A stretch of DNA of 64,000 bases, from the IMG/VR virus record IMGVR_UViG_3300046820_001896; one strand, 5' to 3'. Of this stretch, positions 1,207 to 29,011 are shown in pieces. Within the stretch, counting starts at the first letter, position 1. The number at the start of each line of letters is the position of its first letter. The position numbers were made by a program, and so were the translations under genes. The notes beneath the pieces were generated by a model that had not been told where the DNA came from, did no database searches, and saw nothing but the letters and a program-made list of their open reading frames with translations. This stretch comes from a virus. Its lineage: Duplodnaviria > Heunggongvirae > Uroviricota > Caudoviricetes.

Positions 1207-1301
1207 GCTCCTGTAGTTTAACGGTAAAACTCCAAGCTTATACCTTGGCGATGTCTCTAGATGAGGGAATGATATCGGTTCGAATCCGGTCGGGAGTACC
1301 A
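1207..1301 (+). tRNA. type-II-like tRNA (95 nt) with anticodon TAT and a 25-nt variable region; identity uncertain (Ile-UAU-like or a mutated Leu scaffold)
   Basis: Acceptor gctcctg/cgggagt with two G-U pairs. D-arm gttt-aacggta-aaac. Perfect anticodon stem ccaag/cttgg with loop cttatac. T-arm atcgg-ttcgaat-ccggt. Discriminator is A and CCA is encoded. Confidence 0.55.
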
Positions 1302-1309
1302 AAGTACTA

Positions 1310-1340
1310 CATGTACAAATTGTGTTGAATGTGATATAAT
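1310..1340 (+). promoter_or_regulatory. sigma70-like early promoter, member of reiterated family (cATGTACA -35-like, 17-nt spacer, TGtGaTATAAT extended -10)
   Basis: catgtaca at 1310-1317 and tataat at 1335-1340. The same architecture recurs about 10 times in the window, each time 20-45 nt upstream of a plus-strand ATG. Confidence 0.6.
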
Positions 1341-1365
1341 AGATTATACATTGTAAAGGAATAAT

Positions 1366-1941
1366 ATGCAAATCAATCTTCGTAAAGCAAACGCTATTCA
1401 GTCTGAAATCCGCAAGGCAATCAGCAGCGTAAAGGTAGAAAATAACATCACAGTAAGTGAATTCACTAGTGATGTAGATGCAGCTTTGAGTAAAGGTGCA
1501 TTAGAGTTCAACCAAGCGGTTGAACGTAAAGAAGCGCTTAACGATGCGCTATTCCAAATTCGTGCTGCAGTTGGTCGTGCAAACGCATCTGCAGGTATTA
1601 GCGATCTTTTGGCTGAAGTTGAAAACTTCGATGCGAAGATCAACCTAAAAACAGTTGTTGCAACAAGCACACCACGTAAAGAGATCACAGAGATCAATGC
1701 ACGTATCGTGAAAGCTAAGTCTGCTACTGGCGATAGAATGTCACTGTATGGTGATCGTCTAAGCAACGTAGAAACTGGTGTTGCAACAGAAGAAGCTATT
1801 CGCGTAGCTAAAGAGGAAGTAAAACGCCTTAAGCGCGAAAAGCAAGCATTAAGCGATAAGCTTTTGCAGTTGAATGTCAATACTCTAATTGAGTTGACAG
1901 ATAAAACAAAGGTAACTTTGACTGCAGAAGGCATTATCTAA
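1366..1941 (+). CDS. hypothetical protein (191 aa, predicted alpha-helical)
   Basis: RBS aaagga 8 nt upstream, and the promoter at 1310-1340 precedes it. The overlapping minus ORF 1398-1934 is rejected. Confidence 0.6.
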   Translation: MQINLRKANAIQSEIRKAISSVKVENNITVSEFTSDVDAALSKGALEFNQAVERKEALNDALFQIRAAVGRANASAGISDLLAEVENFDAKINLKTVVATSTPRKEITEINARIVKAKSATGDRMSLYGDRLSNVETGVATEEAIRVAKEEVKRLKREKQALSDKLLQLNVNTLIELTDKTKVTLTAEGII

Positions 1942-1944
1942 AGT

Positions 1945-2205
1945 TTTGAAGATAGTGATGATAGGAGAGCCTTGCATTTTGACAAGCGCACAAAACTATC
2001 CATTACTGGATAGGTTTAAGCCCTGAAAGCTTAATCCGAACAATCGACCAACTTATACATAATTGCTCTCGAATAACATGACTCGAAAAGTCGCTGCTTA
2101 TTGCTCTCGAGAACCAATTGTTTGTGGTCTGCTTATTGCAAATTGCTTAATGCAGATTGCTGAGCGACTTGTCGCAGGTTTGAATTGATTCATTATCTTC
2201 ATCTT
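1945..2205. repeat. non-coding region with short direct repeats (ttgctctcgaRaac x2, cttattgc x3) and hairpin gcgac-ttg-tcgc
   Basis: No ORF with a start and RBS in 260 bp. Repeats seen by eye. It sits between a CDS and tRNA-Trp. Confidence 0.4.
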
Positions 2206-2210
2206 AATAT

Positions 2211-2284
2211 GTCTCGGTGGTGTAATGGCAGCACTGCGGTCTCCAAAACCGTTAGTGGGGGTTCGAGTCCCTCCCGGGATGCCA
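2211..2284 (+). tRNA. tRNA-Trp (anticodon CCA)
   Basis: Acceptor gtctcgg/ccgggat, anticodon stem gcggt/accgt with loop ctccaaa, T-arm ggggg-ttcgagt-ccctc, CCA encoded. Confidence 0.8.
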
Positions 2285-2341
2285 AACAATGGCGTGGGTA
2301 GCAAGGAAAGATAGATTAGATTCTACACCTGCGTCGCCAAT

Positions 2342-2415
2342 GCGGGATTAGTTTAGTGGTAAAACGACATCCTTCCAAGTTGTAGTTGCGAGTTCGATTC
2401 TCGCATCCCGCTCCA
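2342..2415 (+). tRNA. tRNA-Gly (anticodon TCC)
   Basis: Perfect acceptor gcgggat/atcccgc. Anticodon stem acatc/gttgt has one internal mismatch, loop cttccaa. T-arm gcgag-ttcgatt-ctcgc, CCA encoded. Confidence 0.7.
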
Positions 2416-2443
2416 ATAAAGAATTGCTGCTAATTTTTAAAGA

Positions 2444-2677
2444 ATGTTTTATATAATAACTAAAGATGGTTTCACATTGAATGCTAGTCCAACGTTGGAT
2501 GATGCAATGATTTTTGCTAAACATTATGGACGGTTTGTAACCATCAAAGGGAAAGATTTTGAAGCATGTGGTGTATTTGGCGTAGATTCTATTAAAGACG
2601 GAATATGTCCAGATGGCATTGCATATGATTGGAATAAAAAATCACGCATTGGTCGTGTAAAGAAAGAACGTAAATGA
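2444..2677 (+). CDS. hypothetical protein (77 aa)
   Basis: ORF lying between tRNA genes, with a basic C-terminus. Confidence 0.45.
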   Translation: MFYIITKDGFTLNASPTLDDAMIFAKHYGRFVTIKGKDFEACGVFGVDSIKDGICPDGIAYDWNKKSRIGRVKKERK

Positions 2678-2705
2678 AACGAAAACATAAACCTCGAAAA
2701 CCTAT

Positions 2706-2780
2706 GGGGGTATAACTTAACGGCTAAAGTACCTGGCTTTTAACCAGATAATCAGAGTTCGATTCTCTGTGCCCCTACCA
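2706..2780 (+). tRNA. tRNA-Lys (anticodon TTT)
   Basis: Acceptor gggggta/tgcccct, D-stem actt/aagt, anticodon loop cttttaa, T-arm cagag-ttcgatt-ctctg, CCA encoded. Confidence 0.8.
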
Positions 2781-2818
2781 TAAATCAAAGTATATTCACT
2801 GAGTGTATTTCGATCTAT

Positions 2819-2892
2819 GGTGTTAGTAGTGTAGTGGCTGCACGATTGTCTGTGAAACAATAAGAGAGGGTTCGATTCCCCCTTTCACCCCA
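2819..2892 (+). tRNA. tRNA-His (anticodon GTG), with extra 5' G pairing to C73
   Basis: Perfect anticodon stem attgt/acaat with loop ctgtgaa. T-arm gaggg-ttcgatt-ccccc. Acceptor has two internal T-T mismatches and the CCA is only partly encoded. Confidence 0.55.
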
Positions 2893-2900
2893 AAATTTAT

Positions 2901-2974
2901 GCCTCGGTAGTTTAAAAGTAGAACACCCTCCTTACAAGTGGAAGACGGCGGAGCGTTACCGCAACGAGGTACCA
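2901..2974 (+). tRNA. tRNA-like element or pseudo-tRNA with non-canonical T-loop AGCGTTA (same oddity as 1044-1119)
   Basis: Acceptor gcctcgg/acgaggt gives 6 of 7 bp, followed by A-CCA. T-stem ggcgg/ccgca. No good anticodon stem could be formed (candidate loop cttacaa). Confidence 0.3.
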
Positions 2975-3010
2975 AGATAAATAGTTAGAAGAGAAACAAA
3001 TGAGGTAGTT

Positions 3011-3568
3011 ATGAATGTGCTGGCATTAGACGTAGGTGGAATTCCACGTCAATGGTTAAACTTAGAACAAGCTATATTGTATCAAGCTAAAGGCCAAGTT
3101 GCTTGGTCTCTTGGTGATACAATCGCGAAGTTTCGTGGAGGTGTACAGAATGATGGAACAGAATCAATTCTTGAAACACCTTCTATCATCGCCATTAAAG
3201 GTGGTGAAGGTTTTAATCCAGCGAAGTTTGGTACAGTGGTTCTTAGCAATAAGACATTATTTGGTAGAGATCGTCATGTCTGCGCCTACTGCGGTAATCA
3301 TTTTACTTCTAATCATCTTTCCCGTGATCATATCGTTCCTATGTCACGTGGTGGTGAGAATAAGTGGATGAACGTAGTAACATCTTGCAAGAAATGTAAC
3401 TCACAAAAGAGTGACAAATCTTTGAAAGAAGCAGGTTTAGAGTTACTGTACATGCCTTACGAACCAAATCACTACGAACATATTATCCTTCAGAACCGCA
3501 ATATTCTTGCAGATCAAATGGATTATCTTCGGACAGGTGTACCAAAACATTCACGTGTTTTGTCTTAA
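3011..3568 (+). CDS. HNH homing endonuclease
   Basis: HNH motif CAYCG...SRDHIVPMSRGGENKWMNVVTSCKKCNSQK. RBS gaggtag precedes the start. Located in a tRNA cluster, as T4 segB is. Confidence 0.8.
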   Translation: MNVLALDVGGIPRQWLNLEQAILYQAKGQVAWSLGDTIAKFRGGVQNDGTESILETPSIIAIKGGEGFNPAKFGTVVLSNKTLFGRDRHVCAYCGNHFTSNHLSRDHIVPMSRGGENKWMNVVTSCKKCNSQKSDKSLKEAGLELLYMPYEPNHYEHIILQNRNILADQMDYLRTGVPKHSRVLS

Positions 3569-3577
3569 ATCAACGAA

Positions 3578-3602
3578 TGGAGGCTTATGCCTCCATTTTT
3601 TT
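3578..3602 (+). terminator. rho-independent terminator
   Basis: Hairpin tggaggc-ttat-gcctcca followed by TTTTTTT. Confidence 0.75.
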
Positions 3603-3616
3603 GGATATATAATATT

Positions 3617-4162
3617 ATGAAAAGCTATATTTCTGTATTTGATAATGTTCTTGAAGAAGACTTTTGTAAAAATCTTCGAGAGAAATTTGAACGAAGTAAA
3701 GATGTTTGGGTTAGACGTGACGATAAGTTTAAAACATTTAATGAGATCAACTTCGGTCAATATCCAATTTTTGCTGAAGAGCAAAATACTATTCTTTCTA
3801 AAGTTCAGCCATACGTACAAAAGTACTGTGAGCAATGGGATATTAAATTTTTCCCAGAACAAATTGGCTTCGAACAAGTGCGTATGAAAAAATACGAAGT
3901 CGGTGGAAAAGAAGAGTTTCGCCATCACGTTGACGTAGGCGATTATGCATCTGCTCGACGTTTTCTTGTCATGTTTTTTTATCTCAATAATGTTGCTGAA
4001 GGCGGTGAAACTGCTTTCATTGGTATTAATGACGATCAACGGGTTTCACCCAAAACAGGTCGCTTGCTAATGTTTCCACCAATGTGGACACATCCTCATG
4101 CAGGTTTGCCACCTATCACCAATCCAAAATATATCGTAGGTACATACCTGCATTATACCTAA
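3617..4162 (+). CDS. 2OG-Fe(II) oxygenase superfamily protein (prolyl-4-hydroxylase-like)
   Basis: HHVD ... GGETAF ... RLLMFP..H spacing matches the HxD...H iron-binding triad. The listed ORF start 3587 lies inside the terminator, so ATG 3617 is used. Confidence 0.6.
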   Translation: MKSYISVFDNVLEEDFCKNLREKFERSKDVWVRRDDKFKTFNEINFGQYPIFAEEQNTILSKVQPYVQKYCEQWDIKFFPEQIGFEQVRMKKYEVGGKEEFRHHVDVGDYASARRFLVMFFYLNNVAEGGETAFIGINDDQRVSPKTGRLLMFPPMWTHPHAGLPPITNPKYIVGTYLHYT

Positions 4163-4172
4163 AGTACTACAT

Positions 4173-4200
4173 GTACAGCAGGATATTTTTGTGGTATAAT
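4173..4200 (+). promoter_or_regulatory. sigma70-like early promoter of the catgtaca...tgtggtataat family
   Basis: tgtaca at 4173-4178, 16-nt spacer, tgtggtataat with tataat at 4195-4200. The flanking aaagtactacatgtaca is identical to that at 1301-1317. Confidence 0.6.
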
Positions 4201-4224
4201 ATAACCTATACTTAAGGAATAATA

Positions 4225-10348: not shown

Positions 10349-12292
10349 TCAATCCTTTCTGTTATATTGTGAATCAACCATATCATAGTGCACTTTATCT
10401 GAAGGACCAAATAGTCCCATACTTGCACGACGATTATCAATAGTCTTTTGATTGTTGTATACTGTAAATGGTTTGTAACCTGCCACATCTGGCATTTTTA
10501 CTTGATAAGCATCAAATCCTGGAGTAAAACCCATTGCTTGGATAACTACGTTTTGAATTTGCTTTTGCTGTTCCATATCAGCAGCTTTACCCATGTTTCC
10601 AGCTAAATTTTTACCATCCTCAACTGCTTTAGCTTTTGCTGCTGCTTCACGTCTTGCTTGAAGTTCTTGGCGTGCAGTTGGTTTTGGACTATCTGAAGTT
10701 TTACTATTATTTGTTGATGCAGTTGTTGTAGATCCACCAGAAGATGCTTGTGTATTTGATGGAGCATTTTCTTTAGGTTCTTCTTTTTTGGCTGGTGCAG
10801 GTGCTGTAGCGACTGACGTAACAGAAGTTGGTGAAGATGTGCTCGTAGAACTAACTGAAGGTGTTAAACTAACAGCAGTAGTCGCTGCTGCCGCAGGAGA
10901 CGCAGATGTAGATGTTGATGTAACAACGTTATTAACAACTGGATCTGATATCACCGCTACAGGAGTTGATGATGTATTTGTATTAGATGCTACAACTACA
11001 GTTTCGGCAACAGTAGTTGTTGTCGTAGTAGTAGGTGTGTTTTGTCTTTGTAATGCTTGTTGAGTAGCATACGCTTCACCATAATTTGGGCAACGAGTAG
11101 AATACAAACCGCTTATTGTACATTGTTGACTAAAATATGCTTCTTGATATCCTGGACAATCTGTAGCATATAACGCATTGATAGAACATTGCTGTGCTTT
11201 GTAAGCTTGTTGATAACCACTACACGTTGTAGAATATAATGGATTTAATGAACATTGTAATTCTAAATAAGCTGTCGCATAACCTGGACAGTTCACAGAA
11301 TATAGTGTATTCAATGAACATTGTTGCTCGAAGTATGCTTGTTGATAACCACTACATGTTGTAGAATATAATGGATTAATAGAGCATTGTTGTTGTAAAT
11401 AAGCAGCTTGATAACCTGGACATTGTTGACTATACAATGGATTTGTAGAGCATTGTTGTGTTAAGTGTGCAGCTGCATATCCTGGACAAGATGGATCAAA
11501 TAATGCACTTATTGTACATTGTTGAGCAGTGTAAGCAACTTGATATCCTGGACATGTTGGTGATGATAATGGATTGATGATACACATGTCAACTGGACCT
11601 GTACCATTAGGTGCTTGCCAACTAAAAATACTTGCACTTCCAGGCGTAATGTTTAAACCTCGGCCGTGATAGTATTGATAATACTCACCATTTGCCAAGT
11701 TACCAGACATACCTGAAGTAACTGCATTCCATTGTACCATGGCACCAGCAATTCGTGTATCAACTAAACCAGCAGAGTTGATTTTAATCTCAAAACTATT
11801 ACCGCCTTGTGATGAACAACATTGACTTAAATTATACCAACCATATGTCATACTATTACCTTCACGCAGGTAATATTGGTTTTGGCCATTCCAAGAATAT
11901 AAATCTGTGTGTATACCAAAAATAGAGTAATTGTAACGAGGATCTGTTGTTGTTCTTAAATCAACACCTGTACAACATAATCCATAAGCACCGCTTTGCA
12001 TTGGATCTTGGAACGTTACAACGCCATTAGTCATTGCCCATGAATTATTGAACACTCTACCAAAAAATGGAAAATCAAAACCTAATGGAACATTGCGCCA
12101 ATCGTCATCAGCTGCAGTAATATTAACTGCATTTGGATTTGTGCGAATATTTTGTAAAGGTAAAGCATTAGCGCCTGTTCCAACTGTTATCGACAATCCA
12201 GGAGGAGCACCAGGAATTTGGATCGTAACAAGTTCAGCACGTGCAACAACCGTGCTTACTAATAATAGTAAGGACACAAGTAAGCGCTTCAT
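10349..12292 (-). CDS. secreted modular protein: signal peptide, about 250-aa N-terminal domain, eight tandem repeats of roughly 19-20 aa (QQCSINPLYSxxCPGYQxAY), Thr/Ser-rich linker, C-terminal domain
   Basis: Signal peptide MKRLLVSLLLLVSTVVARA. Tandem two-Cys repeats are visible in both protein and DNA. Poly-Thr/Ser low-complexity region. Confidence 0.7.
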   Translation of the reverse strand: MKRLLVSLLLLVSTVVARAELVTIQIPGAPPGLSITVGTGANALPLQNIRTNPNAVNITAADDDWRNVPLGFDFPFFGRVFNNSWAMTNGVVTFQDPMQSGAYGLCCTGVDLRTTTDPRYNYSIFGIHTDLYSWNGQNQYYLREGNSMTYGWYNLSQCCSSQGGNSFEIKINSAGLVDTRIAGAMVQWNAVTSGMSGNLANGEYYQYYHGRGLNITPGSASIFSWQAPNGTGPVDMCIINPLSSPTCPGYQVAYTAQQCTISALFDPSCPGYAAAHLTQQCSTNPLYSQQCPGYQAAYLQQQCSINPLYSTTCSGYQQAYFEQQCSLNTLYSVNCPGYATAYLELQCSLNPLYSTTCSGYQQAYKAQQCSINALYATDCPGYQEAYFSQQCTISGLYSTRCPNYGEAYATQQALQRQNTPTTTTTTTVAETVVVASNTNTSSTPVAVISDPVVNNVVTSTSTSASPAAAATTAVSLTPSVSSTSTSSPTSVTSVATAPAPAKKEEPKENAPSNTQASSGGSTTTASTNNSKTSDSPKPTARQELQARREAAAKAKAVEDGKNLAGNMGKAADMEQQKQIQNVVIQAMGFTPGFDAYQVKMPDVAGYKPFTVYNNQKTIDNRRASMGLFGPSDKVHYDMVDSQYNRKD

Positions 12293-13638: not shown

Positions 13639-13680
13639 TTTCACCTGGTGAAATGCACCACATCCAAGTCCCTCCGTGCA

Positions 13681-13707
13681 AGCCAATGATTTCATTGGCT
13701 TTTTCTT
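13681..13707 (+). terminator. rho-independent terminator
   Basis: agccaatga-tttc-attggct followed by TTTTCTT. Confidence 0.6.
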
Positions 13708-13742
13708 GCTGAAAAAAAAGTGAAAATATTTCGCCCAGGCTA

Positions 13743-13771
13743 TGTACAAACTGCAGGAAACGCTGTATAAT
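13743..13771 (+). promoter_or_regulatory. sigma70-like promoter of the catgtaca...tgtataat family
   Basis: tgtaca at 13743-13748, 17-nt spacer, tgtataat ending 13771. Confidence 0.55.
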
Positions 13772-13802
13772 GGTTACATAAATTGAAAAAGCGAGGTAAA
13801 TT

Positions 13803-14150
13803 ATGAAATACACATTAGACGAAGGCATCTCAAAAGCTGTACAACTTATGCAAGATAGTTACATTAATTTGTACAAAGCTCGCGCTGATGACAATGCTGC
13901 ACGCAAAGTTTTTGCTGCAGAACAAGTAGAAAAGTTTATCAAAACTACACGTATTGAAAAAGGTCGTAACTATGTAAAAATTGCCGCTGATGGTAGCGTT
14001 AAATTTTTTGTCGTAGCAAAAGCAACAAAAGGTTTTAATGTCGGTGATATTTTGAAAGCTGCATCGTGGCGTGCACCAGCAACAAACTTTGCACGCGGTA
14101 ACGTTATCGATGGAGATTTTAGTCAAATTACATGGACAGGAGCATACTAA
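13803..14150 (+). CDS. hypothetical protein (115 aa)
   Basis: RBS gaggtaaatt precedes the ATG. Confidence 0.55.
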   Translation: MKYTLDEGISKAVQLMQDSYINLYKARADDNAARKVFAAEQVEKFIKTTRIEKGRNYVKIAADGSVKFFVVAKATKGFNVGDILKAASWRAPATNFARGNVIDGDFSQITWTGAY

Positions 14151-14302
14151 TGATTCGAGTAGTAATTGGTTTTCTGATAGTTTTTGGTGCAGTTGGTGGC
14201 ATGGACAGTGGTACTGATGCGCAATTACCTGCACAGATCGCTCTGGCGGTTACAGGATTGGCATTGATGTACTTTGGTACTAAAAAAATAAATGCGAATT
14301 AA
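14150..14302 (+). CDS. small membrane protein (about 50 aa, below the ORF-track cutoff)
   Basis: ATG overlaps the upstream stop (taATGa). Translated by hand as MIRVVIGFLIVFGAVGGMDSG... Confidence 0.35.
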   Translation: MIRVVIGFLIVFGAVGGMDSGTDAQLPAQIALAVTGLALMYFGTKKINAN

Positions 14303-14312
14303 TTCGCAAAAA
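14290..14312. terminator. perfect palindrome tgcgaattaattcgca flanked by A/T runs (bidirectional hairpin)
   Basis: 16-bp palindrome with aaaaa downstream and ttttt on the opposite strand. Confidence 0.4.
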
Positions 14313-14316
14313 GCAT

Positions 14317-14344
14317 GTACAAACAAGAAAAAGTGTGGTATAAT
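14317..14344 (+). promoter_or_regulatory. sigma70-like promoter of the catgtaca...gtgtggtataat family
   Basis: tgtaca at 14317-14322, 16-nt spacer, tataat at 14339-14344, ending 5 nt before ATG 14350. Confidence 0.55.
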
Positions 14345-14349: not shown

Positions 14350-14508
14350 ATGACAAAACGAAAGGTAACTCGCAAAGCAAATCCGATAGCGAAAGATTTG
14401 CGTACACCGAAGTACCGCATGCGTGTTGTCAAAAGCAAGAAAGCTTACACACGTAAGCAACGTAGTGAAATCATTAACATTGAAATGGAGTTAAATCATG
14501 GGTCGTAA
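14350..14508 (+). CDS. ArfA-like alternative ribosome-rescue factor homolog (52 aa, very basic), possibly translated from a leaderless mRNA
   Basis: Hand-translated MTKRKVTRKANPIAKDLRTPKYRMRVVKSKKAYTRKQRSEIINIEMELNHGS. The core resembles the E. coli ArfA segment [28 protein letters not shown], recalled from memory. The ORF is below the track cutoff. Confidence 0.4.
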   Translation: MTKRKVTRKANPIAKDLRTPKYRMRVVKSKKAYTRKQRSEIINIEMELNHGS

Positions 14509-17046: not shown

Positions 17047-17049
17047 GCA

Positions 17050-17078
17050 TGTACTGCAGGAAATTAATGTGGTATAAT
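17050..17078 (+). promoter_or_regulatory. sigma70-like promoter (catgtact...aatgtggtataat)
   Basis: tgtact at 17050-17055, 17-nt spacer, tataat at 17073-17078. CDS begins at 17098 with RBS gaggag. Confidence 0.55.
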
Positions 17079-18294: not shown

Positions 18295-18821
18295 CAGAAA
18301 TATTAATCGCGATCACTACATGGATATCGGCGTTGGTAAACCCGATTCCATTAAATGAGCAAGATGTATATTGTCTAACACGTAACGCATACTACGAAGC
18401 GAAAGGGGATTCGCAGATGTCACAGATCGCTGTGACACACGTAGTTTTAAATCGCATGAAAGATCCAGGTTTTCCTAAGAGTGCCTGCGATGTAGTCTAT
18501 CAAAAGACTAAACACGAAGCAAAGACTACATGTCAGTTTTCGTGGACATGCGATCGCCGATTAATGGGTCAACTTGCACCGCAAGAATCCGATATTTGGC
18601 AAGATTCTTTAGAATCAGTTCGTCAAGCACTAAAGATGTATTATCATCGCAATGTTGACGTAACACAAGGATCTACATTTTATCATGCGCACTATGTCAA
18701 TCCACAATGGAGAGGCGTAGAACGAGTAACAACAATTGGTAGCCACATATATTATAAGGTAAATGAAAAATGTCAGAACAACCAGAAGGCATGTTCACAA
18801 AAAAGTCGTTCAGCGATTTAG
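18291..18821 (+). CDS. SleB-like cell-wall hydrolase family protein
   Basis: CLTRNAYYEAKGDSQMSQIAVTHVVLNRM ... SACDVVYQ ... QFSW matches the Hydrolase_2 (SleB) pattern. Confidence 0.6.
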   Translation: MTEILIAITTWISALVNPIPLNEQDVYCLTRNAYYEAKGDSQMSQIAVTHVVLNRMKDPGFPKSACDVVYQKTKHEAKTTCQFSWTCDRRLMGQLAPQESDIWQDSLESVRQALKMYYHRNVDVTQGSTFYHAHYVNPQWRGVERVTTIGSHIYYKVNEKCQNNQKACSQKSRSAI

Positions 18822-19006
18822 TTCAAGAACGAGTTAAGAAGGATCGATCAACATACCTCGATGCAATCATGGATATTTGCAAAGAGCGTATGTTAGATCC
18901 AGAAGACGTGGCAAAAATGTTGAGTAATCCTATTAAAGCCAAACTCGAGGCTGAAGGGATGAATCTTGGTTATTTAAAGAAAAAGAATGAGTTACAGTTC
19001 GATTGA
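18770..19006 (+). CDS. hypothetical small protein
   Basis: ORF overlapping the 3' end of the upstream gene. The true start is uncertain. Confidence 0.3.
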   Translation: MSEQPEGMFTKKSFSDLVQERVKKDRSTYLDAIMDICKERMLDPEDVAKMLSNPIKAKLEAEGMNLGYLKKKNELQFD

Positions 19007-19607
19007 TGGCTTCACAGCATACCAAAAGTATATTGCAATTAAGTTGCACTTTGAATCAAAGACGTATGACTATTTCAAATACAATGGTAAATCGAGCGTA
19101 ACTCCTAAATCATTCTTTGCTCGTAGAGATAAGTACTTCTTTGCGAAACTAGTGAGGACGTATGGCATCGACGAGTTACCATACTTTTTTGCTTGTAACT
19201 TTGCACATCATGGTACGAAGTGGGTTGGTGGATTAACTGACGATCAAGCTGATGAGACGTATAAGTCTTATAAAAGTTTGTTAGAAAGTTTCACATATCG
19301 CTTCAAAAATGATATAGATAAAATTATATCGGTGAACGACTTCAAAAGTTTGTTTGTGGTAGAGGATGGACAACATCCTAAACTCGTTAAGATGTTAATT
19401 CAAAACGAGATACCACTCGAGACCTTTGTTGTCCTTAATCGATACATAGACTTCATGCCGAAGTTCGACAAAGAGATAACAGATCCCATCATGTGGCCTG
19501 ATATCTCGCTGAAGATCAGAAAGTATGATAAGTTTATTTCGGTGAATAACAAAAAAGTCGCAGAGGCGTTAAAAGATTGTTTACAATCGAATGCCGTTGT
19601 GGTATAA
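18987..19607 (+). CDS. gp59-like helicase loader
   Basis: RRDKYFFAKL and ETFVVLNRYIDFM correspond to T4 gp59 RRDKYFFQKL and ETFILLDSFLNII. It sits immediately upstream of the gp32-like gene, as in T4. Confidence 0.7.
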   Translation: MSYSSIDGFTAYQKYIAIKLHFESKTYDYFKYNGKSSVTPKSFFARRDKYFFAKLVRTYGIDELPYFFACNFAHHGTKWVGGLTDDQADETYKSYKSLLESFTYRFKNDIDKIISVNDFKSLFVVEDGQHPKLVKMLIQNEIPLETFVVLNRYIDFMPKFDKEITDPIMWPDISLKIRKYDKFISVNNKKVAEALKDCLQSNAVVV

Positions 19608-19608
19608 T
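19581..19608 (+). promoter_or_regulatory. sigma70-like promoter (ttacaa ... ttgtggtataat)
   Basis: ttacaa at 19581-19586, 16-nt spacer, tgtggtataat with tataat at 19603-19608. Confidence 0.5.
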
Positions 19609-19653: not shown

Positions 19654-20550
19654 ATGTCATTAGCAAATCTCAAAGCAAATCGCGTTTCAGCGATCAACAA
19701 ACTAGTTGCAGCAGCCGAAAAAGTCGGCGGTGGTCAGCAACAATCTTTCGAAGACAATCGCATGTGGAAACCTGAGGTCGACAAAGCTGGTAACGGTTTT
19801 GCGGTCATTCGTTTCTTGCCAGCACCCGAAGGTGATGATTATCCATGGACTCGTTATTGGGACCACGGTTTTCAAGGTCCTGGTGGTTGGTACATCGAAA
19901 AGTCTTTGACTTCCATCGGTGGTCAAGATCCAGTTTCTGAAATCAACTCTAAACTATGGAATAGTGGTTTAGAATCTGATAAGGATATCGCACGTAAACA
20001 GAAGCGTCGTCTTCACTACGTATCGAACATCCTCGTTGTTTCAGATCCAGCTCATCCCGAAAATGAAGGTAAAGTATTCCTCTTCCAATATGGTAAGAAG
20101 ATCTATGACAAGATGATGGATGTTATGCAACCACAATTCCAAGACGAAACACCGGTTAATCCTTTCGATCTATGGGAAGGTGCAAACTTTAAGTTGAAGA
20201 TTCGCAACGTTGAAGGTTATCGTAACTATGACAAATCAGAGTTCGATAAGCAAAGCGCTGTTGCAAATGGCGATGAAGAAGAACTTGAAGCAATCTATTC
20301 TAAGTGCTACTCACTCAAAGAGTTCACTGATCCTAAGACTTACAAAACTTATGATGAATTGAAAGCAAAGCTCGAGCGTGTATTGGGTGGTTCCGCACCA
20401 CGTACTACTGCTGAGTCCATCACTCTTGATGAATCAGCTACTGCACCATCAGTTGGTAAGACTAAGTTCGCACCAGTTGAAGCATCAGATGACGAAGCAG
20501 GTGACGACGAAACTTTGTCATACTTCTCACGTCTAGCTAAAGAAGCTTAA
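19654..20550 (+). CDS. gp32-like single-stranded DNA-binding protein
   Basis: GNGFAVIRFLP, HGF, WYIE, NILVV.DPA.PENEGKVF....GKKI.DK and PWEGANF all align with T4 gp32 motifs. Acidic C-terminal tail. Confidence 0.85.
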   Translation: MSLANLKANRVSAINKLVAAAEKVGGGQQQSFEDNRMWKPEVDKAGNGFAVIRFLPAPEGDDYPWTRYWDHGFQGPGGWYIEKSLTSIGGQDPVSEINSKLWNSGLESDKDIARKQKRRLHYVSNILVVSDPAHPENEGKVFLFQYGKKIYDKMMDVMQPQFQDETPVNPFDLWEGANFKLKIRNVEGYRNYDKSEFDKQSAVANGDEEELEAIYSKCYSLKEFTDPKTYKTYDELKAKLERVLGGSAPRTTAESITLDESATAPSVGKTKFAPVEASDDEAGDDETLSYFSRLAKEA

Positions 20551-20555: not shown

Positions 20556-20586
20556 TTATGGGTGGGGGAAACTCCACCCATTTTAT
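20556..20586 (+). terminator. rho-independent terminator after the gp32-like gene
   Basis: gggtggg-ggaaact-ccaccc followed by attttat. Confidence 0.5.
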
Positions 20587-22538: not shown

Positions 22539-22563
22539 AGCCACCTTCGGGTGGCTTTTTTAT
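22539..22563 (+). terminator. rho-independent terminator
   Basis: agccacc-ttcg-ggtggct followed by TTTTTTT. Confidence 0.8.
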
Positions 22564-22566
22564 TGG

Positions 22567-22595
22567 TGTACAGCAGAGAATAAATGTGGTATAAT
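22567..22595 (+). promoter_or_regulatory. sigma70-like promoter (tgtaca ... aatgtggtataat)
   Basis: tgtaca at 22567-22572, 17-nt spacer, tataat at 22590-22595. Confidence 0.55.
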
Positions 22596-22626: not shown

Positions 22627-22938
22627 ATGAGTGAATATACACCCGATCGATGGGTTTTGGTTGAATTGACTGTCACAGAGACAGGTGAGACACACACGAA
22701 AGTGTTTGCTGGTTGGTACGGCGGATACGGTGGTGCAGACTCATGGAAATTATCTTCGGGTGTTGTGAACACTGAAGATCGTGATGACTATTATGAATTC
22801 ACCAATCATAGTGGATCTGTCTATCGATGCTATAAGAATGCACAAGGAATGGGTGCATATATGAGTAGCGTTTACAGCGGTTTCCAACGTGATGCTGAGA
22901 AGACCGGTAAGTTTACCATGAATGTATTGAACATGTAA
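22627..22938 (+). CDS. hypothetical protein
   Basis: RBS taagga precedes the ATG. Confidence 0.5.
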   Translation: MSEYTPDRWVLVELTVTETGETHTKVFAGWYGGYGGADSWKLSSGVVNTEDRDDYYEFTNHSGSVYRCYKNAQGMGAYMSSVYSGFQRDAEKTGKFTMNVLNM

Positions 22939-23221: not shown

Positions 23222-23469
23222 TTTTAGATTATGAGAATCGTATCTATCTGAGCAAGCGCAACTTGCTGACCCTTCTATCCAAACTCGAGCGATTCGAGAA
23301 AGGTGAGGAGACTAAGTGTACGATCATTAAGAATGCCAATCCATTAGATCCATATTGTCAAACCATTGACGAGATCGCAGTCATTGCCATTCCCGATGAA
23401 CACTACTATACAAAGAGAAGTGCTGGACCTATGCACCCATCAGATGAAGCAAACATTAAAGGTAAGTGA
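23218..23469 (+). CDS. hypothetical protein
   Basis: ATGA overlap. Confidence 0.45.
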   Translation: MILDYENRIYLSKRNLLTLLSKLERFEKGEETKCTIIKNANPLDPYCQTIDEIAVIAIPDEHYYTKRSAGPMHPSDEANIKGK

Positions 23470-23813
23470 TGTTACAATACTCTGAAGAATACGATGCGTA
23501 TTATGACGACCAAACCAATGAATGGGTTGATAGTCGGTGTTGTGATCCCGCATGTGAATATTGTAGCAATAGACCAAAGAAACCTATGCATGAGACAAAC
23601 ACTGACAATCCTATTGATTTCCCACCTGTAAAGAATGATCTCGTATATCGGCTAAACAAACGAGCTGAGATTCGCCGTCAAATCACCACACGAAAATCAG
23701 TACAGGAAGGTGCACCTGATAGGATTGCAGACCTATTAGAGGAAGCAGCACAGAGGATCGCCATCCTCGAGAAGAACATTGCTATGATGAAGGAAGAAAA
23801 CAATGGAAAATGA
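23466..23813 (+). CDS. hypothetical protein with CDPACEYC motif
   Basis: ATGA overlap. Confidence 0.45.
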   Translation: MMLQYSEEYDAYYDDQTNEWVDSRCCDPACEYCSNRPKKPMHETNTDNPIDFPPVKNDLVYRLNKRAEIRRQITTRKSVQEGAPDRIADLLEEAAQRIAILEKNIAMMKEENNGK

Positions 23814-24138: not shown

Positions 24139-24332
24139 AATCATTCCTTCATACAGAAGACATAGATCGCATCAAGGCACTGATGGAAGCCATTGATTAT
24201 GATGGTAACTTTGAGATCGAGATCGATGAATCCTCAGGCATAGGAAGGACAGTCATTGTACATGTACCATATTCAGTCAATTCATTGCGTGGTACATTTT
24301 CTTATATTATTTCAAATGTGGAGAACTGGTAA
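24132..24332 (+). CDS. hypothetical small protein
   Basis: ORF only. Confidence 0.4.
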   Translation: MVKSFLHTEDIDRIKALMEAIDYDGNFEIEIDESSGIGRTVIVHVPYSVNSLRGTFSYIISNVENW

Positions 24333-24841
24333 TGAGTAACTATGAAAAACATGCATTGATGGAATTCCGTGCTGCAGGATGGATAGATGAGAATGGTAAT
24401 TATATCGATGAGATGCAAGAGATGATTTGTCGTCATGTACTTGCATTACTTGATGTATTCGATGGTGAGGGACATAGTGGATCCTCTGCACCGTATGCTA
24501 TCAATTTATTCTCCAAACTTGCTAAGTTTGATCCTGTTGTGCCATTGACTGGTGAAGATTGGGAATGGACTGAGGTAAGCGAACGAATGGGTAGCAAGTG
24601 TTGGCAAAACAAACGATGCGGTAAGGTGTTCAAGGATGAGGATGGACGAGCATACGATATCGATGGGAAAGTTTTTTGGGAATGGAGTGGTACGAAGGAA
24701 GATCCATATAAGTCGCACTACACATGCCGAGAATCTCGTGTGTATGTCACCTTCCCATATACTCCATCGACTGAGTATGTGTATCGATACTCTGATGCCA
24801 CTCCACCTGCCCCACCACAAACAGAGCAAGGGTTACTATGA
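24332..24841 (+). CDS. hypothetical protein
   Basis: ORF; GC content visibly higher than the window average. Confidence 0.45.
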   Translation: MSNYEKHALMEFRAAGWIDENGNYIDEMQEMICRHVLALLDVFDGEGHSGSSAPYAINLFSKLAKFDPVVPLTGEDWEWTEVSERMGSKCWQNKRCGKVFKDEDGRAYDIDGKVFWEWSGTKEDPYKSHYTCRESRVYVTFPYTPSTEYVYRYSDATPPAPPQTEQGLL

Positions 24842-25294
24842 GCATAAGTTATGTAACCATTATGGTTGTAATATGGATGAACTCCGCGGGCCCTCAGATC
24901 ACAGTCACAGAGGTCAGTTCAGCATCTAATTGTTATGAGGCAAAAATGCAGATCGAGGCCTATGGCAAAAAGTTTAGGAAAGACTGGGATGTCAACGTAT
25001 TATGCATCAAGAAGTAAAGAAGTGGTGTAATCGGTGTCAGAGGTACCACGATGCCAAACCGGTCGATCCACAAAAAATCATAGAACAACATGCCATGGAT
25101 CTTGCCAAACACATAGATCGTATGGTCATAGAGGAACTAAAGAATGAAAAATGACGCAATATTCTATGGATCAATTGTAGCTATGTTTGCATTCATGACA
25201 GGTAGTCCATTCATTGCACTAACGATCTTCCTCCTCTCCCTCTTGGCATCATAATAATAGTCTATCGTTTTGCATGTAATACTATCTTCCTACA

Positions 25295-25322
25295 TGTACA
25301 AACTCACCCATTGTGATAGAAT
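25295..25322 (+). promoter_or_regulatory. sigma70-like promoter (catgtaca ... ttgtgatagaat)
   Basis: tgtaca at 25295-25300, 16-nt spacer, tagaat at 25317-25322. CDS begins at 25356. Confidence 0.45.
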
Positions 25323-25355
25323 AGGTTCTAACAGATTAAGAAAAGGACTAAGAAA

Positions 25356-25541
25356 ATGTACGGATACCTGCAAAGCTCATATGAACAAGACTTGGAAGTA
25401 GTCAAAGCCAAACTCGCCGAGGAAGGCATTCTCCACTACACAACATATAAGGCTAATCACTGTGTTGGTGTAAATTATGGTCGAGTCAGTGCATATTATA
25501 TTGTTCGTAATGGTAAGGTTGTAGATGTCCAAATCGATTGA
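25356..25541 (+). CDS. hypothetical small protein
   Basis: RBS aaaagga. Confidence 0.4.
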   Translation: MYGYLQSSYEQDLEVVKAKLAEEGILHYTTYKANHCVGVNYGRVSAYYIVRNGKVVDVQID

Positions 25542-25607
25542 AAATTTCCTCGCTAAACTCGCCTCTGATAAAGAGATCATGAACGTATTGAAAAGAATGG
25601 CTAATAA

Positions 25608-26010: not shown

Positions 26011-26238
26011 ATGGGGGATCAAGTAATGGATGCAGCACTAAAAGTAGTCTTCGCAGCATTGATCATCACGTTCATTGGCTTCTTCGTGTATGTCATCCCA
26101 TTAGACATGGATAGGACAAAAAGAGCAGAACAATTAGCCACAGAGATGGGATGTACGTATATCGGTAATGCAAGGGATTTAAACTCGGTCAAGTTCTTCC
26201 AGTGCGGTGAGAATATAGTACTAAGGAGAGTGAAATGA
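26011..26238 (+). CDS. small membrane protein
   Basis: One TM helix. Confidence 0.35.
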   Translation: MGDQVMDAALKVVFAALIITFIGFFVYVIPLDMDRTKRAEQLATEMGCTYIGNARDLNSVKFFQCGENIVLRRVK

Positions 26239-26352
26239 CAGACTTCGAACAAGATTGCCTCCATCATTATGGGAAGATCCTCATAGGCAAGTACAAACAT
26301 TATTGCTGTGAATGGGATTTCTTACCCATAGACGAAACATGTCAAGAATTCT

Positions 26353-26556
26353 TTGCATGCACATGCTTTGATGATAAGGAATCTAATGTCAGATAGAAAG
26401 AACAGAGACATAGGCAACAAAAGAGAACATCAAAAGAATAAGCCACAATGTGATTGTTGGTTATGTCGAGAAGGTAAGACAAAAAAGCGTGTCATAAGGG
26501 ATAAGGACATAAGAAAGGAACTCGGTTATGCAAGAATCGGACTCAATAACATATAA
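26353..26556 (+). CDS. small basic protein with CDCWLC motif
   Basis: ORF only. Confidence 0.3.
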   Translation: MHAHALMIRNLMSDRKNRDIGNKREHQKNKPQCDCWLCREGKTKKRVIRDKDIRKELGYARIGLNNI

Positions 26557-26719
26557 GTGTATAGAATGTGGTAATGATGCCACATGGATTAGATCAACAC
26601 AATTTGCAGGGGATCATCCATTTTGTGAGGAACATGCAAAGCAAGAGGAAGGATTTGGTATAAACGACTCATATGAGTATTGGTACCAGATAGAAACAAA
26701 GGTTCTAGGTAGCAACTGA
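26528..26719 (+). CDS. small zinc-ribbon protein (CIECG ... CEEH)
   Basis: ORF with Cys pairs. Confidence 0.35.
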   Translation: MQESDSITYKCIECGNDATWIRSTQFAGDHPFCEEHAKQEEGFGINDSYEYWYQIETKVLGSN

Positions 26720-26854
26720 AGCTCGCTCCCATGCCATCCTGTGAAATAAAGGGATTAAATGAGTAGTCCCCAGAGCCAAGAAGACCCGTGTAAGCCAATG
26801 ATCTGTATAGACAAATAATACTGTACTGAAACGGTAGACTACTCAAATAAACAT

Positions 26855-26882
26855 GTACAAGGGGCTGTGGGTGTGGTATTAT
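26855..26882 (+). promoter_or_regulatory. sigma70-like promoter (catgtaca ... gtgtggtattat)
   Basis: tgtaca at 26855-26860, 16-nt spacer, tattat at 26877-26882. CDS begins at 26916. Confidence 0.5.
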
Positions 26883-26915
26883 CTATCCATAGATTGAATA
26901 ACATAAGGATAGTAA

Positions 26916-27839
26916 ATGACTCAAGTTTCTGTAATGATCGCCTTTGACAAGGCTGCTGGCAAGTTCAAGTGTTCTATTAATGGTCAGAAGTTTACCACGA
27001 CCAAACAGTCTTACATCGAATACATGTTCAAGCAAATCACTGGTCAAAAGCGTACATTCAAAGACATCGAGGCAATGCAAAAAGCCACTGTTGAGAAGTT
27101 TGGCATCAACGAACGATTTGGTTTCGTGGAGAAGATCGTAGGCATGGTCGCCACTGGCATCCAGCCATCTACAGTGATCACCGGTCAAGGTGGTTTGGGC
27201 AAGACATACACTGTCATGAAGACTCTCAAGGCTTCTGGTCTCCAAGACTACAATGAATTAATCCAACGTTTGCCTTCTGGCTCTACGATCCAAATGTCTA
27301 AGGTGTATGTCACTGTCAAAGGTTACTCTACTCCTAAGGGTTTGTACCGTACTCTGTTCGAGAATCAGAATGCAACCATTGTGTTCGATGACTGTGATTC
27401 TATCCTCAAAGACCCTGTTGCCCTTAACTTGCTCAAAGGTGCTTTGGACTCCTATGGCAAGCGCATCATCTCTTGGAATGCAGAGTCCTTTGGCAAGGAC
27501 GACGAGTTGCCACGTAGCTTCGAGTTCAAAGGTCGTGTAGTGTTCATCTCTAACATGGACCAAGACAAGATTGACCAGGCAATCCGTAGTCGTTCTATGA
27601 TGATTGACTTGTCCATGACAGACGATCAGAAAATCGACCGTATGGCTCACATTGCAGACAGCGAAGAATTCATGCCAGAATACGACGCTAAAGTCAAGTC
27701 CGATTCACTTGCTCTGATCCGCGAAGTTAAAGACGATGCTAAAGAAATCAGTCTCCGTACTTTGATCAGTGTTTGTAAGATCCGCGCAGCTAACCCTGTG
27801 GACTACAAAGACCTCGCAACTTACATCTTGACTAACTAA
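26916..27839 (+). CDS. AAA+ / P-loop ATPase (RFC clamp-loader-like core with about 90-aa N-terminal extension)
   Basis: Walker A GQGGLGKT, Walker B IVFDDCD, sensor-1 VVFISN, and SRS at the RFC-box SRC position. Confidence 0.65.
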   Translation: MTQVSVMIAFDKAAGKFKCSINGQKFTTTKQSYIEYMFKQITGQKRTFKDIEAMQKATVEKFGINERFGFVEKIVGMVATGIQPSTVITGQGGLGKTYTVMKTLKASGLQDYNELIQRLPSGSTIQMSKVYVTVKGYSTPKGLYRTLFENQNATIVFDDCDSILKDPVALNLLKGALDSYGKRIISWNAESFGKDDELPRSFEFKGRVVFISNMDQDKIDQAIRSRSMMIDLSMTDDQKIDRMAHIADSEEFMPEYDAKVKSDSLALIREVKDDAKEISLRTLISVCKIRAANPVDYKDLATYILTN

Positions 27840-28000
27840 TTGGGAGTTTTTATGTTGACAGACAAAGAGATATGCGACCTCAGGGATGAGATCCAGATCA
27901 TGATTATTCAGAAGGTCCAGGAGAGACTCGATCCGAACTTGTCTATTGATGAATGTGTCGAGCAGACAGACGAGATCATGGACTTTATTAAGGAGATGAT

Positions 28001-28195
28001 GTGAAGCTGTTCAGGGAGACGACTAAGGATTGGCAGCAGCCTACCCCCAATCATGCCTATGTACTGTCAGATGACAAACAGTGGATGTATGGGTATGTCA
28101 AGGCTGGTACACGGGACCTGATCACCCTCTCCAAGAGGATTAGGTTTGATGCCAGGTACAGGACATTTGTAGCATTAAAGAAAGGACAAATATGA
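28001..28195 (+). CDS. hypothetical small protein
   Basis: ORF that belongs to a chain of 45-65-aa ORFs (27852-28520) coupled through ATGA overlaps. Confidence 0.35.
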   Translation: MKLFRETTKDWQQPTPNHAYVLSDDKQWMYGYVKAGTRDLITLSKRIRFDARYRTFVALKKGQI

Positions 28196-28325
28196 AACTA
28201 TTCAATGCAGTGACAGACATGATCCAGGCACGGATGTACATGTGTCTATTAGGAGTAATCATTGTTGTGGTAGGGATGCTCTCCCCACAATTAGCGCTTA
28301 AGTGTGTACAGACAGGAGTCAACAG

Positions 28326-28520
28326 ATGAAGAAATACACAGCATCCACCAGATGGACACAACCGTATCATTACATCACCGGATGGAGAAAACGTCAGACC
28401 ATCAATAGAGTATTAGATGATCTACATACACAGCAACTAGACTTCATTGATGCAGCAGTAGATCAGTCAGATTTGTCAGATGCAAAGACAATCATTGCTC
28501 ATATCATGCAGAAACAATAG
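28326..28520 (+). CDS. hypothetical small protein
   Basis: Internal ATG 28326 overlaps the preceding stop. Last gene before the terminator. Confidence 0.35.
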   Translation: MKKYTASTRWTQPYHYITGWRKRQTINRVLDDLHTQQLDFIDAAVDQSDLSDAKTIIAHIMQKQ

Positions 28521-28531
28521 TATACAGGCAG

Positions 28532-28565
28532 GGGTACCTATAGGAAACTAAGGTACCCTTTTATT
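28532..28565 (+). terminator. rho-independent terminator
   Basis: gggtacc-(13 nt)-ggtaccc followed by TTTTATT. Confidence 0.55.
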
Positions 28566-28569
28566 AAGG

Positions 28570-28980
28570 TTCCATATTAATAGGAGACCATCTATAAGTT
28601 ACATACTCGGTTAAACCGTTGTCGTCCGTCACAAAGACAAAAAATAAAAAATTCCCCCCATGGGCAGAATATCCCCAGGATGTCAGTCCCTTCCAAGGAT
28701 GAACAGTAACCAATTATCTTTTTCCAGATAATTACAGATAATTCGCCATAGAAAAATTCCCCCCAGGGTTTATCCCTTCTCCTGGGGGTAATACTGTATC
28801 CAAGAGATTAATACTATACAACCTTCACATTGTTCCCCCCTTAGGTTGTTTGTTTCTCATGATACAGAATGTATCCCATTGTATACAGAATACTGCAGTT
28901 TGTATACTATAAGAAACAATATTGTATCATTAATGAGTCCCTAAGCTACTTAATGACTACTATATGATCCATTACAATAC
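28570..28980. repeat. long non-coding region with three ttcccccc motifs, duplicated agataatt and atacagaat units
   Basis: No credible ORF. Repeats seen by eye at 28652, 28757 and 28833. Confidence 0.5.
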
Positions 28981-28982
28981 CA

Positions 28983-29011
28983 TGTACAACAATATATTTC
29001 TATGGTATAAT
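28983..29011 (+). promoter_or_regulatory. sigma70-like promoter (catgtaca ... tatggtataat)
   Basis: tgtaca at 28983-28988, 17-nt spacer, tataat at 29006-29011. Confidence 0.5.

Follow-up and report, generated by a model that had tools for sequence, protein, structure and literature searches.

Ten Copies of a Promoter-Like Module in the Early Half of the Window

We analyzed a 64,000-nt stretch of DNA (hereafter, the window) from the virus record IMGVR_UViG_3300046820_001896 (IMG/VR; Caudoviricetes) and identified ten plus-strand sites between 1.3 and 29.0 kb that share a common composite, cATGTACAa-N12-TGTGGTATAAT (Table 1). We consider it likely that these modules are promoters for the primary sigma factor of the host, of the early type known from phage T4 and used without a phage activator, and that each of them heads a short plus-strand unit of non-structural genes. 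An earlier note on this DNA had described the ten sites with coordinates that lie within 0–2 nt of those found here. Its spacer of 16–17 nt between the −35 hexamer and TATAAT also holds, with 17 nt at nine sites and 16 nt at 25295.

The block TGTGGTATAAT is present without mismatch in five of the ten sites and with one mismatch in three others; site 13743 reads CGCTGTATAAT and site 25295 reads TGTGATAGAAT. Eight sites have an exact TATAAT, and the remaining two have TAGAAT (25295) and TATTAT. The extended −10 that had been ascribed to every site, i.e., a TG at positions −15/−14, was found at nine of the ten and is missing at 13743. The −35 box is of the TGTACA type, with TTTACA in its place at 19581. 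Compared to TTGACA, TGTACA is identical at four and TTTACA at five of the six positions, and both are missing the G at the third position.

The pattern TGTAC-N18-TATAAT, with no mismatch allowed, occurs seven times in the window, always on the plus strand, vs. 0.11 ± 0.35 occurrences expected from 100 dinucleotide shuffles (maximum 2), a test that is independent of the sites themselves. The window was also searched with a two-block weight matrix and a variable spacer. The ten sites reached scores of 22–34 and were separated from the next best site in the window (18.2) and from the best site per sequence in 20 Markov simulations (≤18.9). As the matrix was trained on the ten sites, this separation is partly circular and mainly demonstrates that the window holds no further copies, be it on the minus strand or between 29 and 64 kb. 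Two minus-strand occurrences of CATGTACAA (12761 and 12986) were rejected as promoters, both being located inside coding sequence (Met-Tyr-Lys at the gene start).

All modules are intergenic or overlap the last codons of the upstream gene. At eight of them, the −10 is followed within 19–45 nt by an ATG with a Shine–Dalgarno sequence (AAGGA, GGAG, or GAGG), which agrees with the distance of 20–45 nt given previously for all sites; the exceptions are 14317, where the ATG follows after 5 nt, and 28983, where it opens an open reading frame (ORF) of only 15 codons. Modules 1 and 2 have a 17-nt upstream flank and the Shine–Dalgarno region AAGGAATAAT in common, and the identical flank that had been reported for these two sites, AAAGTACTACATGTACA, indeed occurs exactly twice in the window, at 1301 and 4161 (0.03 expected).

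Conservation at Orthologous Sites in Related Viruses

A scan of 2.9 million viral contigs for exact TGTACA-N12-TGTGGTATAAT revealed at least 119 loci, and about 40 of the 119 listed encode homologues of window proteins. We complemented this set by relatives that were fetched without motif selection, via the 398-aa protein encoded downstream of module 5. In 29 of 31 relatives with 65–93% identity in this protein, a T[GT]TACA-N17-TATAAT module is located upstream of the orthologue, and at the same sites the upstream gene, the spacer, and the 5′ untranslated region (UTR) diverge. Among 25 distinct sequences, the −35 hexamer had an information content of 1.88 bits per position and the TGn region, comprising the five bases that precede the −10, one of 1.37; values were lower for the spacer (0.88) and for the sequences upstream (0.72) and downstream (0.61).

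Copies of T[GT]TAC[AT]-N17-TA[TG]A[AT]T from the window and 33 relatives (114 distinct sequences) were found exclusively on the coding strand (114 vs. 0). A looser scan of the relatives, which admits chance hits, gave a spacer of 17 nt in 128 cases, 16 nt in 40, and 18 nt in 13. When sites were anchored on TGnTATAAT, the hexamer located 17 nt upstream was TGTACA in 50 and TTTACA in 25 of 106 cases; 11 more were shifted by one base (16-nt spacer), and TTGACA was not found among the 106. TGTACA and TTTACA replace each other at orthologous promoters, e.g., at the promoter of a gene for a 52-aa protein (module 4 in the window). In the relatives, the main mode of the distance between −10 and ATG is 17–33 nt, with AAGGA or GGAG.

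These data also bear on the idea that the modules are DNA-level signals with only the look of promoters, i.e., sites for recombination or homing, for replication or packaging, or for methylation at the BsrGI-type palindrome TGTACA. Synteny breakpoints coincide with modules (see below), and TGTACA is a 6-bp palindrome, as such signals would have it. They would not account for conservation that falls on the two blocks contacted by sigma, placed exactly 17 nt apart with a free spacer between them, nor for the absolute strand bias and the coupling to downstream start codons, and we regard this explanation as extremely improbable. A role as a restriction or methylation site was rejected as well, since TGTACA is enriched rather than avoided in the window (52 occurrences vs. 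27 expected).

The 52-aa protein and its TATAAT-N5/6-ATG spacing are kept in nine relatives (L120, L121, L122, L124, L125, L127, L128, L130, and L048). Overall, an ORF-opening ATG 5–6 nt past the −10 was found in 8 of 60 non-redundant modules, vs. 3% of random positions (4–7 nt window). The protein itself is very basic and begins with MTKRKVTRKANPIAKDLRTPKYRMRVVKSKK; its only family matches are phrog_20887, whose function is not known, and a sub-threshold match to Pfam DUF7230. An ArfA-like appearance of the protein found no support in Pfam or PDB sequence searches.

A T4-Like Genome with a Separate Late System

Judging by its proteins, the window derives from an uncultured T4-like myovirus and is placed among the marine T4-likes. 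It encodes the gp33–gp59–gp32 synteny and 14 tRNAs, and holds late promoters of the TATAAATA type. Its gp32 is about 55% identical to gp32 of cyanophages, of Pelagibacter phage HTVC008M, and of Methylophilales phage Melnitz, and the gp6 baseplate wedge shows 40–42% identity to both heterotroph phages (HTVC008M and Melnitz). A search of 50,697 phage records for closely related DNA yielded matches to tRNA and gp32 fragments only. The tRNA cluster is followed by about 29 kb of mostly small plus-strand genes. The non-structural block comprises genes for a metallophosphoesterase, an SPFH protein, a glycosyltransferase, a cell-wall hydrolase, gp33 (18770–19006; a homologue of the late-transcription coactivator), the helicase loader gp59, and gp32. 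From 29.4 kb onward, the window encodes structural proteins, including those of tail and baseplate.

Overall, the window shows no enrichment of the T4 late-promoter octamer, TATAAATA; at six of its seven locations, the octamer stands just upstream of structural or late genes, e.g., 24 nt before the PAAR spike gene (7347). The divergent gap at 12.84 kb contains a palindromic TATTTATAAATA (12835 on the minus and 12839 on the plus strand), which could serve both strands. None of the ten modules contains the octamer, so that they lack what marks a T4 late promoter. The position of TATAAATA ahead of late genes points to a genome with a T4-type late system, in which the ten modules are confined to the pre-replicative half. 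With modules and octamers combined, pre-replicative genes could be told apart from late genes in a phage group without a cultured member, and the modules alone would split the non-structural half into about ten transcription units. The earlier proposal of a phage-specific early/middle promoter consensus that can guide the parsing of operons is well supported by position, strand, geometry, and comparative conservation.

A Lineage-Specific −35 Box

Consensus sequences for early promoters are known for several T4-like phages, i.e., TTTACW-N17-TAYWAT for T4 and PST, TTGACA for RB49 and phi1, and TTGYVH for KVP40 and nt-1 (PMC4122927). By comparison of these sequences, T(G/T)TACA-N17-TATAAT is a form one base away from that of T4. 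The closest cultured relatives have other boxes: in Melnitz, the reiterated modules read gccTTGACAtttgtt-N-TATA(A/C)T, those of HTVC008M have the form agcTTGACTtt...TGTGATATAAT, and cyanophage P-SSM4 has cTTGACAa modules (seven on the coding and none on the opposite strand). T(G/T)TACA modules are essentially absent in these three phages, which are like the window in being marine T4-like myoviruses with a gp33/gp59/gp32 neighbourhood and reiterated, stereotyped, strand-specific modules with a 17-nt spacer before early genes, and unlike it in their canonical −35. More distant environmental relatives (28–40% identity in the 398-aa protein) have TTGAC[AT] and not T[GT]TACA as well (11 to 0 in L153).

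In 57 of the 119 listed motif loci, one strand carries at least three T[GT]TACA modules. The 119 loci together contain 359 T[GT]TACA vs. 46 TTGAC[AT] modules, a proportion that is biased upward as each locus was picked for one exact copy. Genes for a gp43-like polymerase and a gp41-like helicase are found in these loci with modules directly before them, and their contents and module counts indicate that a sizeable uncultured T4-like group has the T(G/T)TACA box. In some other environmental loci, AAAATAAsT precedes the box. With TTGACA absent in the clade and TTGAC[AT] present in relatives, the box has been switched clade-wide. The −35 box of related marine T4-likes is either TTGAC[AT] or T(G/T)TACA, of which the latter resembles TTTACW of T4.

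A box of this kind could be dictated by the host, if region 4.2 of the host primary sigma factor preferred a T at the third position and the box mirrored host housekeeping promoters and not phage history. The coherence of the box across the promoters of the clade and the listed loci (with the selection just described) and the TTGAC[AT] boxes of relatives with known, different hosts would both be explained in this way. However, T4 uses TTTACW although E. coli sigma-70 prefers TTGACA (PMC4122927), and the dialect of a phage therefore need not mirror its host. The loci with the box also span 31–48% G+C, which suggests several hosts, and recombinational homogenization of cassettes could give equal coherence. 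A host-dictated box is accordingly quite improbable in our view.

Promoter Class and Proposed Mechanism

The conserved positions are the contacts of a primary sigma factor, and no other conservation was found: there is no conserved column upstream of −37 and no downstream element beyond the ribosome site. The early half of the window also offers no other promoter class from which an activator could be expressed. Generic sigma-70 matches of the canonical TTGACA class are not in excess there (59 vs. 66 and 60 vs. 71 in shuffled sequence) and none is reiterated, and the remaining gaps of the early half hold nothing comparable to the modules. With no other reiterated class in this half, the module class must include the promoters that are used first. 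The units headed by modules include gp33, which is needed before late transcription, as well as gp59 and gp32. Taken together, the simplest reading is that of early-type promoters for the host holoenzyme; it is from position, strand, geometry, conservation, and breakpoints that we infer that the modules act as promoters, when they act, and which polymerase reads them.

In the mechanism we propose, sigma region 4 would contact T(G/T)TACA, region 3 the TG at −15/−14, and region 2 TATAAT. Transcription would start about 6–7 nt past the −10 and give a 5′ UTR of about 12–38 nt with an AAGGA or GGAG ribosome site; at site 14317, the mRNA would begin at the AUG. The TATAAT-N5/6-ATG geometry of the gene at 14350 provides indirect support for a start just past the −10. 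A literature search for start-site data from cyanophage Syn9 gave nothing useful, and tRNAs were the only RNA motifs that Rfam recognized when 5′ UTRs were searched. The module would represent a lineage-specific form of the T4 early promoter and a portable cassette, a minority of its copies being immediately preceded by a terminator hairpin. Where related phages have gained, lost, or swapped genes, the breakpoints would lie at or inside modules, as is the case for promoter-early stem-loop (PeSL) elements.

T4 early promoters consist of UP element, −35, TGn, and −10, and are read by the unmodified host polymerase (Hinton 2010, PMC2988021). To the extent that sequence can tell, the modules are T4-type early promoter cassettes, a known class, with a distinctive −35 box. 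They are like the early promoters of T4 and PST in the reiterated −35/TGn/−10 arrangement with a 17-nt spacer, in their position before small early genes in plastic regions, and in the third base of the −35, which is T and not G (TTTACW there and T(G/T)TACA here, with an exact TTTACA at 19581). They are unlike them in the second base of the −35, which is mostly G, in the longer TGTGG extended −10, and in having no A/T-rich UP element. A repeated strong promoter is the ordinary means by which T4-like phages capture the host RNA polymerase, and it is the −35 TGTACA/TTTACA that is exceptional. The reason for the exclusion of G from the third position would bear on the old question of why T4 early promoters deviate from the host consensus. 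Early and middle use are not separable from sequence alone.

TGTACA is listed as the −35 of a few predicted E. coli RpoD promoters (PMC3946193). We found ATGTACA-N12-TGTGGTATAAT in at least 120 bacterial loci (L194–L313), mostly from unrelated Clostridia and in promoter-like contexts, although the loci listed do not sample the taxonomic spread fairly. These loci suggest that TGTACA can function as a −35 in combination with an extended −10. The modules are like extended −10 (TRTGnTATAAT) promoters of Firmicutes and others in the TGTGGTATAAT block, and these loci have the full composite; unlike the modules, the bacterial copies are scattered and single, stand at unrelated genes, and do not form a reiterated cassette. 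Among the matches listed, the composite was frequent in metagenome-assembled genomes of Clostridia (Oscillospiraceae, Lachnospiraceae, and Ruminococcus), with A/T-rich upstream flanks. These DNA-pattern matches were discarded as a clue to the host, being mostly clostridial promoters unrelated to the phage. Comparison with the window proteins gave three weak, isolated matches among the 120 listed loci, three matches in a 'Rhodobacteraceae' bin were dismissed as their contigs are not relatives, and a scan of 185,579 species genomes at the protein level detected no relatives.

The alternative of activator-dependent middle-type promoters deserves a closer look. A phage or virion protein would read the palindromic TGTACA and replace or remodel sigma region 4, like MotA and AsiA of T4. 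It would explain why the box is sharply conserved, partly palindromic, and non-canonical, and why TTGACA never occurs in the clade when cultured and distant environmental relatives have TTGAC[AT]. Furthermore, gp32 and gp59 are middle-class genes in T4, whose middle promoters are like the modules in having a sigma-70 −10, often with TGn, and a conserved upstream box other than TTGACA in front of replication genes such as gene 32. However, the MotA box (TGCTTtA) is centred at −30, 11–13 nt from the −10 (PMC2988021), whereas the box of the modules has another sequence and lies at the canonical −35 with a 17-nt spacer. TGTACA is also swapped at orthologous sites with TTTACA, a known sigma-70 −35, and the identical composite occurs in many bacterial genomes. 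Middle promoters are reported to be lacking in marine T4-likes (PMC9004378), and a second promoter class that would express the activator first was not found in the early half. No regulator (AsiA, MotA, or helix-turn-helix protein; Pfam and PHROG) was detected in the ~60 window ORFs scanned, the window being part of the genome; a sub-threshold NepR match in ORF 23466–23813 (E = 0.004) was treated as chance. We therefore consider an activator improbable. The motif for a phage-encoded transcription factor that the earlier note had envisaged does not find support either, as only sigma-contact positions are conserved, TGTACA and TTTACA are interchangeable, and the screen detected no regulator.

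Several points weigh against promoters of the T4 early type that depend on the host sigma factor alone. The A/T content between −60 and −38 is 0.61 vs. 0.60 in the background, i.e., there is no A/T-rich UP element, unlike in T4 early promoters. At two of the three best-conserved positions, the −35 box does not match TTGACA, and the count of zero for TTGACA among the 106 anchored sites is unexpected if selection were only for a canonical sigma-70 fit. An upstream hairpin is found at only 2–4 of the ten window modules, so that the PeSL label fits some of them. The separation by weight matrix is, as stated, partly circular, and the regulator screen covered 64 kb, whereas the whole genome may measure some 170 kb. 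For the absence of TTGACA, three explanations remain: homogenization of cassettes by recombination, a host sigma factor with a different preference, or a phage factor at the −35. The last two are, taken jointly, rather unlikely. It is likewise unlikely that the switch to T(G/T)TACA marks a changed partner, either a host sigma factor with an altered region 4.2 or a virion-delivered or immediate-early protein that re-targets region 4. Such a phage protein, in keeping the canonical −35 position, could represent a sigma appropriation distinct from that by MotA/AsiA.

Modules as Probable Boundaries of Gene Exchange

In PeSLs, an early promoter is closely preceded by a stem-loop and followed by a Shine–Dalgarno sequence and an ATG; such elements are found in plastic regions at the boundaries of indels (Arbiol 2010; Comeau 2014, PMC4122927). 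A Shine–Dalgarno sequence and start codon at the 3′ end are present in eight of the ten window modules, and the modules are located at indel or replacement boundaries in hyperplastic regions. Upstream hairpins comprise a strong terminator at module 7 and weaker structures at modules 2 (4136–4151), 3 (13680–13701), and 4 (14293–14308); the other six modules have none. A terminator-like hairpin precedes 14 of 60 non-redundant modules at a distance of no more than 80 nt, vs. 3.5% of random positions. On these features, the modules would be PeSL-like in part, the stem-loop being shared by a minority only. They are like the PeSLs of T4 and PST in the close Shine–Dalgarno sequence and ATG, in the stem-loop at some copies, and in the indel or replacement breakpoints at the elements, and unlike them in that only about a quarter of the copies have an upstream hairpin and that a subset has the ATG 5–6 nt past the −10.

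Nucleotide homology (blastn) to the relatives L120–L127 breaks at 13790, 17068 (inside module 5), 22537, ~25255, and ~26904–26925, and the gene order between 22.5 and 27 kb is permuted compared to relatives. The window, L121, and L122 have a gene for a 115-aa protein between modules 3 and 4, which is missing in L120, L124, L125, L127, and L128, where a membrane ORF of about 50 aa is the only gene between both modules. The window seems to keep a counterpart of this ORF stretch downstream of the 115-aa gene. Presence and absence of the 115-aa gene, together with the alignments, indicate gain or loss at a module boundary. The 31-bp pattern not only recovers related environmental T4-like contigs but would also mark recombination-prone boundaries at which accessory genes are exchanged.

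A subset of modules has a stereotyped 5′ UTR, tCCAaCAAACAAACAAAAGGA, between −10 and ATG (L127, L128, L121, L122, L126, and L135; 25323–25355 in the window), and the upstream flanks form recurrent families, i.e., AATTCGCAAAAAGCA, GGGGGGCCTA, and (A)GTACTACA. From these recurrent flanks and UTRs, several cassette subfamilies appear to spread within genomes. In the shuffled early region of the window, ORF 24332–24841 is homologous to Tad3, which inhibits type I Thoeris defence (Pfam PF25185, E = 2.7e-36).

Individual Modules and Their Neighbourhoods

Coordinates of all modules, of the associated terminators, and of the late-promoter octamers are given in Table 1.

Table 1. Coordinates of the ten modules, associated intrinsic terminators, and T4-type late-promoter octamers in the window.
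Feature	Positions	Strand	−35 hexamer	Spacer (nt)	Extended −10	−10 hexamer start	Remark
Module 1	1310–1340	+	1312–1317	17	TGTGA TATAAT (−10 1335–1340)	1335	
Module 2	4170–4200	+	4172–4177	17	TGTGG TATAAT (4190–4200)	4195	
Module 3	13741–13771	+	13743–13748	17	no TGn (−10 13766–13771)	13766	
Module 4	14314–14344	+	14316–14321	17	TGTGG TATAAT (14334–14344)	14339	
Module 5	17048–17078	+	17050–17055 (TGTACT)	17	TGTGG TATAAT (17068–17078)	17073	51-nt gap
Module 6	19578–19608	+	19580–19585 (TTTACA)	17	TGTGG TATAAT (19598–19608)	19603	
Intrinsic terminator	20558–20581	+					closes the gp32 transcription unit; operon boundary for module 6
Module 7 with terminator	22539–22595	+	22567–22572	17	TGTGG TATAAT (22585–22595)	22590	
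Module 8	25293–25322	+	25295–25300	16	TGTGA TAGAAT (−10 25317–25322)	25317	
Module 9	26852–26882	+	26854–26859	17	TGTGG TATTAT (−10 26877–26882)	26877	
Module 10	28981–29011	+	28983–28988	17	TATGG TATAAT (−10 29006–29011)	29006	
TATAAATA octamer	7316						
TATAAATA octamer	12835	−					
TATAAATA octamer	12839	+					
TATAAATA octamer	34264						
TATAAATA octamer	43032						
TATAAATA octamer	59648						
TATAAATA octamer	62351						

Module 1 directly follows the tRNA-Ile gene (1207–1301) inside the tRNA cluster and stands 25 nt before the ATG of ORF 1366–1941. The cluster (53–2971) comprises 14 tRNA genes, 12 of them identified by ARAGORN and two (1044–1116 and 2901–2971) by Rfam. It also contains a gene for a GroES-like Cpn10 (785–1042) in addition to ORF 1366–1941, and an HNH endonuclease gene (3011–3568) comes after it. 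Module 2 fills a 62-nt gap between the end of a 2OG-Fe oxygenase gene (4162) and the start of the metallophosphoesterase gene (4225). Module 3, with its terminator-like hairpin 41 nt upstream, is the predicted promoter of a DUF7717 gene (13803–14150). At module 4, the palindromic hairpin lies just upstream, and the ATG of the 52-aa basic ORF (14350–14508) follows 5 nt past the −10 with no ribosome site, a spacing that would correspond to the geometry of a leaderless-type mRNA.

The block headed by module 5 encodes a phrog_11903 protein, the cell-wall hydrolase, gp33, and gp59. Module 6 is embedded in the 3′ end of the gp59 gene, whose stop codon is located inside the −10, and is separated by 45 nt from the gp32 gene (19654–20550). 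The intrinsic terminator upstream of module 7 is formed by a hairpin (22539–22556) plus a T-run, and ORF 22627–22938 lies downstream; terminator and module would make up a composite terminator–promoter unit of the PeSL type. Module 8 precedes ORF 25356–25541 by 33 nt and has a 5′ UTR of the type CTAACA...AAAAGGA that recurs in relatives. The same distance of 33 nt separates module 9 from a gene for a 307-aa protein (26916–27839).

Module 10 closes a non-coding stretch of 450 nt and is followed by a mini-ORF (29056–29103) and ORF 29107–29343; a bidirectional terminator (29346–29371) ends this unit. The 15-codon mini-ORF starting with the ATG at 29056 is in frame with ORF 29107–29343, with a stop codon between them. 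Both parts of this pair (29056–29343), i.e., the mini-ORF and the 78-aa ORF, thus form one frame split by a TAA, and the peptide LERRGG(P/S)L occurs in both. Partial duplication, a pseudogene, or read-through could each explain the pair. The non-coding stretch upstream (28520–28980) has no Rfam match and contains three copies of AAAAATTCCCCCC(A/T)GG with spacings of 105 and 76 nt, as well as several TGTATAC and GTATACA motifs that are inverted relative to each other. The stretch may represent a replication origin or an array of protein-binding sites.

Outside the modules, a minus-strand ORF of 647 aa (10349–12292), which had no match in a tblastn search, gave several offset, overlapping blastn alignments to relatives between 11020 and 11600. 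This suggests internal tandem repeats of about 100–150 nt in a large late-strand gene without a family match. The structural block also includes an ORF of 2118 aa (44410–50766) and a gene for a radical-SAM protein (52524–53957).

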